64,000 bases of DNA from the NCBI RefSeq assembly GCF_003018255.1, contig NZ_CP027440.1; one strand, written 5' to 3'. A model generated the notes under the pieces. That model was not told where the DNA came from, searched no databases, and saw only the letters and a program-made list of their open reading frames with translations. Origin of the DNA: Escherichia coli (GTDB taxonomy: Bacteria; Pseudomonadota; Gammaproteobacteria; Enterobacterales; Enterobacteriaceae). The position numbers and the translations under genes were made by a program. Shown here piece after piece: positions 20,925 to 42,160 of the stretch (its first letter is position 1; each line of letters begins with the position of its first letter).

Positions 20925-21030
20925 TACAGTTGATAGCCCCTTCCCAGGTAGCGGGAAGCATATTTCGGCAATCCAGAGACAGCGGCGTTATCTGGCTCTG
21001 GAGAAAGCTTATAACAGAGGATAACCGCGC

Positions 21031-21663
21031 ATGGTGCTTGGCAAACCGCAAACAGACCCGACTCTCGAATGGTTCTTGTCTCATTGCCACATTCATAAGT
21101 ACCCATCCAAGAGCACGCTTATTCACCAGGGTGAAAAAGCGGAAACGCTGTACTACATCGTTAAAGGCTCTGTGGCAGTGCTGATCAAAGACGAAGAGGG
21201 TAAAGAAATGATCCTCTCCTATCTGAATCAGGGTGATTTTATTGGCGAACTGGGCCTGTTTGAAGAGGGCCAGGAACGTAGCGCATGGGTACGTGCGAAA
21301 ACCGCCTGTGAAGTGGCTGAAATTTCGTACAAAAAATTTCGCCAATTGATTCAGGTAAACCCGGACATTCTGATGCGTCTGTCTGCACAGATGGCGCGTC
21401 GTCTGCAAGTCACTTCAGAGAAAGTGGGCAACCTGGCGTTCCTCGACGTGACGGGCCGCATTGCACAGACTCTGCTGAATCTGGCAAAACAACCGGATGC
21501 TATGACTCACCCGGACGGTATGCAAATCAAAATTACCCGTCAGGAAATCGGTCAGATTGTCGGCTGTTCTCGTGAAACAGTGGGGCGCATTCTGAAGATG
21601 CTGGAAGATCAGAACCTGATCTCCGCACACGGTAAAACCATCGTCGTTTACGGCACTCGTTAA
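21031..21663 (+). CDS. crp: cAMP receptor protein
   Basis: 210-aa [80 protein letters not shown]... Confidence 0.99.

Positions 21664-23866: not shown

Positions 23867-23869
<3 letters not shown>
23819..23869. repeat. Degenerate REP-like palindromic element between convergent yhfK and argD
   Basis: cggatacagcgttcacgccgcatccg...gcctgatgcgtcttat resembles the REP core GCGTTCACGCCGCATCCGGC. Confidence 0.4.
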
Positions 23870-25105
<1,236 letters not shown>

Positions 25106-25120
25106 TTACGCATAAACCAA

Positions 25121-25159
25121 TGTGAAATTATAATCACAAAATATGCATAAAAAATCACT
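25121..25159. promoter_or_regulatory. Tandem ARG boxes (ArgR operator) upstream of argD
   Basis: tgtgaaattataatcaca + aaa + tatgcataaaaaatcact: two 18-bp near-palindromes separated by 3 bp, matching the ARG-box pattern TnTGAATwwwwATTCAnw at most positions. Confidence 0.55.
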
Positions 25160-25175
25160 TAATAGCAATCAGAAA

Positions 25176-25739
25176 TCAGCGATGCAGGAAATTAGCCAGC
25201 AGTTGATGTCCTTGTTCGCTGAGAATACTTTCTGGATGGAACTGCACGCCTTCCAGATCCCACTGGCGATGGCGAATCCCCATAATCTCGCGGGTTTCGC
25301 TCCAGGCCGTCACTTCAAAGCACGCTGGTAATGAGTCAGGTTCCACCACCAGCGAATGGTAGCGTGTCACGGTAAGTGGATTTGCCAGCCCCCGAAATAC
25401 GCCCACACCGTTATGTATAATCGGCGAGGTTTTGCCGTGCATGACCTTTGCGGCGCGCACAACTTTGCCGCCAAATGCCTGCGCCATTGCCTGATGACCG
25501 AGGCAGACGCCAAGAATCGGCAAGCACCCGGCATAGTTGCGAATAACGTCAAGGGAGATCCCGGCTTCATCTGGCGTACAGGGTCCGGGTGAGATGACAA
25601 TTTTTTGTGGTTTAAGGGCGTCGATATCCGCCAGCGTCAACGCATCGTTGCGCTTAACCAGCACATCCGCCCCCAGTTCACAAAAGTACTGGTAGAGGTT
25701 CCAGGTAAAAGAATCGTAGTTATCAATAAGCAGGATCAT
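25176..25739 (-). CDS. pabA: Aminodeoxychorismate synthase glutamine amidotransferase subunit
   Basis: 187-aa [26 protein letters not shown]...; class I GATase with Cys-His. Confidence 0.96.
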
Positions 25740-27339: not shown

Positions 27340-27355
27340 TGTGATCAAAATCACC
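27340..27355. promoter_or_regulatory. CRP-like site in ppiA/tsgA divergent intergenic region
   Basis: tgtga-tcaaaa-tcacc fits TGTGA-N6-TCACA at 9 of 10 positions; second copy of aaaatcacct at 27407-27416. Confidence 0.45.
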
Positions 27356-27477
27356 TCTTAAAATGCAATTTAGCAACCGATTGCAATAAAACATTTAATC
27401 AGATCACAAAATCACCTAAAATCGCCCGCTCGCGGCATAGCCCGCTATGCCATTTTATTTTTGAACGCAGGCCAATC

Positions 27478-40674: not shown

Positions 40675-40757
40675 CTTGTTGCCTCGTTTCTGTTCCTTGA
40701 ATTAAATATTCATTTTTCTGAATATTTAGATTATGCGACGTGGATTTGTCGGGAGCT

Positions 40758-41136: not shown

Positions 41137-42042
41137 TTAATAACTCGGTTCCTGTTCCCCACTGACCACTCGTTGTTGATGGGCAAGCAGGGCCTGTTTA
41201 TCAACAACTGCACGCAGCAATTGTTGCATTGGGTAATCATCGACTCGCGTCAAAACTACGGCTTCGGTGGCCTGTAAAAATCGCGGATCGTCTGTGAGCG
41301 GCGTCGCTTCTAATCCCAGCATGGTCAGTTCGTTTTCCGCCACCACGTTCCAGATCACCGCATCAACATCGCCTTTAACAATGCGTTGTAAACTCTCGTG
41401 ATAAGAGAGATCGACTCGTTCCACATCACTATCGCCAAAAAAGACATCGGTCATGATTTTCTGATCCGCCGAACGGTTATCCAGCCCCACGCGATTCACG
41501 TTTGCGGACTCGCCTTTACGGCAAATCAACTGGTGCTCGCCAACGTAGGTGTGCGGCCCCAACTCCAGCGCGAGGCATAACCCTTTTTGCGTGAGATAAC
41601 TTTCCGCCGCCAGTCGGGAAACAACCGCCATGTCATACACGCCGTTAAGTAAACACTCCACGCGAATATCCGCGCCGCGCATGTGCGCATAGTAAAAAGG
41701 AATACCATCAAACTGAGCTTTCAATCCGCTCGCCAGGCCTTCGTACAAACGGGTATAGGGCAAGGGCATCGCGCACACCACATTGTTGATATCCACATGA
41801 CTCAGCAATGCTTTGTTATCCATTTCCACCAGATAACTGCCATTACGCCCACGGCGTTCTATCCGTATCGCTCCGCTTGATTCCAGCGTTTTCAACGCGG
41901 CCTGCGTCAGGCCAACGGATGAACGGCATTCAGTTGCCAGTTCATCTATGGTTTTCAGTCGATTACCGCACTTTTCACCCAACAAATAACGGGCCAGTGT
42001 CGTGATGACGACGCCTTCTTTTTTGATAAACGTTCGACGCAT
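41137..42042 (-). CDS. yhfZ: Putative HTH transcriptional regulator YhfZ
   Basis: 301-aa with N-terminal winged-helix-like segment (LARYLLGEKCGNRLKTIDELATECRSSVGLTQAALKTLESSGAIRIERRGRNGSYL). Confidence 0.8.
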   Translation of the reverse strand: MRRTFIKKEGVVITTLARYLLGEKCGNRLKTIDELATECRSSVGLTQAALKTLESSGAIRIERRGRNGSYLVEMDNKALLSHVDINNVVCAMPLPYTRLYEGLASGLKAQFDGIPFYYAHMRGADIRVECLLNGVYDMAVVSRLAAESYLTQKGLCLALELGPHTYVGEHQLICRKGESANVNRVGLDNRSADQKIMTDVFFGDSDVERVDLSYHESLQRIVKGDVDAVIWNVVAENELTMLGLEATPLTDDPRFLQATEAVVLTRVDDYPMQQLLRAVVDKQALLAHQQRVVSGEQEPSY

Positions 42043-42160
42043 AATAAATTTTCAGTAAATTGAATATTTATATCTTCAGGAATTTGAAGATAAGGCGCAA
42101 CAGCGAGATGTGGAAACGGCGAGGCACTTCACATTTTTTCGGATTATTGCAAATGAGGAT

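Follow-up and report, generated by a model that had tools for sequence, protein, structure and literature searches.

Tandem ARG boxes between pabA and argD as the very probable ArgR operator of the Escherichia coli argD promoter

The DNA analysed here is a 64-kb stretch of the Escherichia coli genome (contig NZ_CP027440.1; hereafter the window), in which argD lies within the local gene order crp - yhfK - argD - pabA - fic - yhfG - ppiA, as given by the RefSeq annotation of an identical genome. argD, the gene for acetylornithine/succinyldiaminopimelate transaminase, occupies positions 23867-25090 on the minus strand (NCBIfam NF003468, 785 bits; RefSeq annotation), and its upstream neighbour pabA is found on the same strand at 25176-25739 (NCBIfam NF005946, 415 bits; RefSeq annotation). 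Because both genes are transcribed from the minus strand, the 85-bp intergenic region that separates them (25091-25175) constitutes the argD upstream region and is likewise read on that strand. A 501-bp query around the tandem boxes described below is present in 5425 of 5426 complete E. coli genomes and is 100% identical in several of them. At the protein level, ArgD of the window strain ends in ...AKVIGGK (407 aa), where its K-12 counterpart ends in ...AKVVGA (406 aa), the two being otherwise identical at 402 of 407 positions. The argD start is in addition overlapped, in a different frame, by a 17-codon ORF (25042-25095, minus strand) that begins 5 nt upstream of the argD ATG and whose K-12 counterpart is annotated as yrfJ (b4820); given its location directly downstream of the boxes, this yrfJ-like ORF is predicted to be co-regulated by ArgR.

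The intergenic region harbours a 39-bp segment, 25121-25159, which reads on the plus strand as TGTGAAATTATAATCACA (25121-25138), aaa and TATGCATAAAAAATCACT (25142-25159), and on the argD strand as AGTGATTTTTTATGCATA ttt TGTGATTATAATTTCACA, spanning positions -69 to -31 from the argD ATG. The sequence-only reading of this DNA had proposed two ARG-box-like elements, 3 bp apart, between pabA and argD and 30-70 bp upstream of the latter, and the segment is in all these respects exactly as described; as argD lies on the minus strand, the box that was then listed first is the promoter-proximal one. Both the distal, promoter-upstream box AGTGATTTTTTATGCATA (25142-25159, minus strand), which lies 17 bp from the pabA stop codon, and the proximal box TGTGATTATAATTTCACA (25121-25138, minus strand) depart from the degenerate ARG-box consensus WNTGAATWWWWATTCANW at 2 of their 18 positions, in agreement with the earlier statement that each matches the pattern at most positions, and the 3-bp spacer between them (25139-25141, minus strand; TTT on the argD strand) sets their centres 21 bp apart. 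The same reading had called both elements palindromes, a term that suits the proximal box, where 12 of 18 positions are self-complementary and a TGTGA-N8-TCACA symmetry is also present, but that is generous for the distal one, where only 6 of 18 are.

Within the 64-kb window, these two boxes are the only matches to the consensus with at most 2 mismatches. A single box of that quality is expected 0.59 times per window and is hence not rare alone; it is the tandem arrangement, and not the single box, that is the remarkable part and that lies well beyond chance. None of 1000 dinucleotide-shuffled versions of the window yielded a tandem with a 2-3 bp spacer and a summed mismatch of 4, the lowest sum being 6, and under an AT-rich Markov null a pair of equal quality arose once per 5 Mb. 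A 2-3 bp spacer between boxes is also the defining geometry of ArgR operators (PMC4381063; PMC6245113).

For a quantitative comparison, we built an ArgR position weight matrix (PWM) from the box pairs in the K-12 control regions of carAB, argF, argA, argG, argR, argECBH and argI (seven operators), leaving argD out of the training set to avoid circularity. When the window is scanned with this matrix, a check that the sequence-only reading had itself put forward, the distal box scores 15.0 bits and is the top single box in the 64 kb, while the proximal box reaches 8.4 bits, which alone is at chance level. As a tandem the argD pair totals 23.3 bits; the runner-up in the window has 14.7, and none of 200 null windows exceeded 21.5. 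The proximal box is not significant alone; the evidence for an operator resides in the score of the distal box together with the fixed spacing.

Known operators, each scored with itself left out of the matrix, range from 21.3 to 38.4 bits, and the argD tandem falls inside this range at its weak end, the two lowest PWM scores among the arg operators being those of argD and argR. The autoregulatory operator of argR is likewise weak (21.3 bits) and confers weak repression (Kr 25.7; PMC3658269), but differs from that of argD in its 2-bp spacer, in a second box that is strongly degenerate, at 5 mismatches, and in that it controls the repressor gene itself. The argI and argF operators share with argD the two 18-bp boxes, the 3-bp spacer and the position, at about -66 to -28 from the ATG; moreover, the first box of argI has a TTGCAA immediately adjoining it, a layout similar to that of argD, and in both argI and argF an A/T-rich hexamer, TATAAA, is found at the box junction. 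Their match to the consensus is nevertheless closer (summed mismatch 2 vs 4; PWM 38 vs 23.3 bits) and their repression tighter, with Kr values of 0.6 and 1.43 vs 5.25 for argD (PMC3658269). On this scale, in which argA is set to 1, the argD promoter is the second weakest after argR (PMC3658269), and the poorer consensus match of its operator relative to those of argI, argF and argG fits the comparatively weak repression measured.

In K-12 MG1655, the argD operator (3,490,211-3,490,249, NC_000913.3) occupies the same locus with the same architecture and is identical to that of the window at 38 of 39 bases. The one difference falls at position 25134 in the proximal box, where the window has TGTGA and K-12 TGTGG, giving the window box one mismatch fewer and a PWM score of 8.4 vs 4.8 bits. 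As a single-copy element, the 39-mer is present in 5425 of 5426 complete E. coli genomes, and about 3874 of the 5425 match the version of the window at 99% identity or above; the K-12 reference appears to carry a minority, weaker proximal-box allele, the window allele being the commoner one. Taken as a whole, the argD control region differs from that of K-12 by four single bases, at 25116, 25134, 25160 and 25164.

To follow the operator beyond E. coli, we assembled a comparative set of one genome per species with ArgD, which returned 80 loci. A box pair with a 3-bp spacer is found upstream of argD in 75 of 75 Enterobacterales and Orbales loci, with a summed mismatch of 1-7 and, in most of them, at about -70 to -31 from argD; the argD upstream regions of six distant outgroups (~63% ArgD identity) were scanned as well and are without a box pair. 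In the 62 loci anchored on the operator, the information content per column averages 1.73 bits in the distal box, 1.92 in the spacer and 1.49 in the proximal box, and amounts to 0.23 bits in the 35 nt of leader that follow. The distal box is nearly invariant in 59-62 species, and the T residues of the spacer are invariant or nearly so. Across 59 species, variation in the operator falls on the N positions and the outer W positions of its two boxes, with the TGA/TCA cores essentially invariant: in the proximal box TGA is retained in 57 of 59 species and TCA in 58, the outer TG and CA being variable. Conservation of the interior W positions and of the spacer in the same 59 species exceeds what ArgR alone would require, which suggests that part of the footprint reflects an overlapping promoter rather than the repressor.

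A different arrangement is seen in several Orbales loci (L055, L058, L059, L068, L070, L071 and L075, from Gilliamella and Schmidhempelia), where another ARG pair is located at about -95 to -57 from argD. This pair is much nearer the consensus, as in AATGAATTTTAATTCAAA tat AATGAATAATTATTTACT, with 0+1 mismatches, and its presence in Gilliamella and relatives points to operator turnover with regulation retained.

The sole conserved island upstream of the distal box is a TTGC tetranucleotide (1.8-1.9 bits per column) in otherwise unconserved sequence. In 60 of 62 loci it holds a fixed position, 9-6 nt before the distal box, so that the hexamer containing it is separated from that box by 3 nt. 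We propose that this hexamer, TTGCTA in the window (25163-25168, minus strand) and TTGCCA in K-12 (the difference at 25164), is the -35 element, and that it is paired across 17 bp with a candidate -10 hexamer, CATATT (25140-25145, minus strand), whose columns are invariant and which straddles the junction between distal box and spacer. Transcription is then predicted to initiate inside the proximal box. An alternative -10 candidate read from the sequence, TATAAT (25127-25132, minus strand), lies inside the proximal box; it is TATATT in most other species and comes without a usable -35. The hexamers and the resulting start site, and hence the exact steric relation between promoter and operator, are thus predictions, but with either -10 candidate the operator would overlap the core promoter. 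A consensus promoter and terminator scan of 24900-25400 reported nothing in that interval: TTGCTA-17-CATATT, at 8 of 12 in the window allele, falls short of the cut-off of 9 used for promoters.

Altogether, we consider it close to certain that ArgR regulates the E. coli argD promoter through the 39-bp segment at 25121-25159 as its operator, and we propose that the operator acts by exclusion of RNA polymerase. In the mechanism we propose, abundant L-arginine would lead one arginine-loaded ArgR hexamer to bind both ARG boxes cooperatively, with the 21 bp between their centres corresponding to two helical turns and presenting both boxes on one face of the helix. Bound in this manner, the repressor would sit across the proposed sigma-70 promoter (-35 TTGCTA, 17 bp, -10 CATATT), on an operator predicted to extend over its spacer, its -10 element and its start region; ArgR and RNA polymerase would be mutually exclusive at the argD promoter, and argD transcription would drop. 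Such a geometry, in which one arginine-loaded hexamer engages a pair of 18-bp boxes, spaced by 3 bp and presented on the same face of the helix, and excludes RNA polymerase, has been described for ArgR (PMC6245113; PMC4381063), although Cho et al. also argue that ArgR action is not always simple exclusion (PMC4381063).

Published work on K-12 supplies the binding and reporter evidence that the sequence-only reading had named as a means of verification: in ChIP-exo, ArgR gives a triple peak pair in vivo at the argD promoter (PMC4381063), and arginine at 0.06-6 mM represses a PargD-GFP reporter, an effect that an ArgR decoy relieves (PMC7826281). Together with the tandem statistics, the footprint across ~75 species and the promoter measurements (PMC3658269), these data support the earlier suggestion that argD is repressed by ArgR. 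The sequence, its significance, the conservation pattern and the conserved -35 derive from the present analysis, while ArgR occupancy, arginine repression and the hexamer and one-face geometry are drawn from the literature on K-12, whose proximal box carries one base change relative to that of the window.

The argD operator is an ordinary, already known and well-documented site. Its two ARG boxes have reportedly been in the literature since about 1990, in a study by Heimberg et al. in Gene, are said to be included in the 1994 review by Maas and are presumably entered in RegulonDB. As a long-studied part of the arginine regulon, the site has little significance beyond its correct annotation, and what is added here is modest: a significance test of the tandem pair, the recognition of the K-12 allele as a weaker, minority one, the rejection of a CRP reading, and a footprint across ~75 species in which ArgR-specific and promoter-specific columns are told apart and the -35 is placed at TTGC.

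Among other explanations, the proximal box could be, instead or in addition, a cAMP-CRP site that ties argD to carbon status. The sequence-only reading had remarked on a resemblance to a CRP half-site pair with a spacing of 8 instead of 6, and the motif TGTGA-N8-TCACA is literally present there, with arms that are perfect and shared with those of CRP sites (TGTGA-N6-TCACA), and is unique in the window. A class of CRP sites with 8-bp spacers was reportedly proposed by Barber, Zhurkin and Adhya in 1993, and the perfect-arm allele of the window is the majority allele in E. coli. If in this majority allele the proximal box doubled as such a site, with cAMP-CRP and ArgR competing at the argD promoter, a gene that also serves lysine/diaminopimelate synthesis would be tied to carbon status in a manner missed by K-12 studies. 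We nevertheless judge both the site and the competition to be very unlikely, as about two TGTGA-N8-TCACA matches with at most 1 mismatch are expected by chance per window, and at the canonical 6-bp spacing the best match of the region has 2 mismatches, a class that occurs at chance frequency (26 found, 25.8 expected). K-12 itself has TGTGG. Of the 59 species, 30 retain TGTGA and 14 retain TCACA, and the full CRP-like motif is confined to the 10 with both arms, since an ARG box leaves the outer TG and CA free to vary. In addition, argD, pabA and yhfK are absent from the main text of a CRP genomic SELEX study (PMC3105977), a weak negative that extends to that main text. With a spacing of 8 bp, where a canonical CRP site has 6, and with poorly conserved arms, the proximal box was rejected as a CRP site.

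Two features of the surrounding map touch on CRP in their own right. The crp gene itself, at about 21000-21650 on the plus strand, lies about 3.4 kb from the CRP-like symmetry, a map coincidence and not regulatory evidence. In the ppiA-tsgA intergenic region, a canonical 6-bp-spaced CRP-like site with 1 mismatch, TGTGATCAAAATCACC, is found at 27340-27355, and a second similar repeat, GATCACAAAATCACC, follows ~50 bp beyond it at about 27393-27408; ppiA is reportedly CRP-regulated.

A second explanation would reduce the conserved block to a core promoter flanked by AT-rich sequence, its resemblance to ARG boxes being incidental. Both -10 candidates and the spacer do lie inside the block, and its interior W positions are conserved beyond what the ARG consensus demands. 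However, a promoter needs no more than its two hexamers, and the invariant TGA/TCA cores (columns 3-5, 24-26 and 35-37) fall outside them; the pair outscores every null window on a matrix trained on other operators; in Orbales the sequence has been replaced by the different, better-matching ARG pair upstream of argD; and published measurements on the argD promoter show both ArgR occupancy and repression by arginine (PMC4381063; PMC3658269; PMC7826281). We therefore regard a promoter-only origin of the block as extremely improbable. There is, finally, next to no likelihood that the inverted repeat functions at the RNA level, whether as a terminator of pabA or as an argD leader structure: the predicted fold does contain a 5-bp hairpin of UGUGA and UCACA, but its folding energy is ordinary (z = -1.45, with 16 of 200 shuffles folding as well), the terminator scan of 24900-25400 is without a terminator-like site, a search of Rfam with E values up to 1 is negative, and the stem arms coincide with columns that vary across species with no compensatory pattern evident.

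Returning to the ArgR operator, a putative third ARG-like box, GCTGATTTCTGATTGCTA (25163-25180, minus strand), is located 3 bp upstream of the distal box, where it overlaps the proposed -35 and the pabA stop codon. Two observations prompted its consideration, namely that ArgR gives a triple ChIP-exo peak pair at argD and that the best tandem of three species lies further upstream: in Shimwellia and two Enterobacter species (L031, L009 and L067), the equivalent third box has 3-5 mismatches, and the best tandem is shifted one box upstream. With 6 mismatches, the E. coli sequence is not distinguishable from background, and we rejected it as a third box. The sequence may be connected with the triple peak pair, but Cho et al. 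interpret multiple ChIP-exo peaks as binding modes and not as extra boxes (PMC4381063).

Elsewhere in the window, two weak ARG-like tandems with a 2-bp spacer and 3+4 mismatches are found in AT-rich DNA at 40697-40734 and 42039-42076, one between yhfY and yhfX and the other at the trpS-yhfZ boundary. With PWM scores of 14.7 and 14.6 bits, against 21.5 bits for the highest-scoring null window, both are probably chance occurrences.
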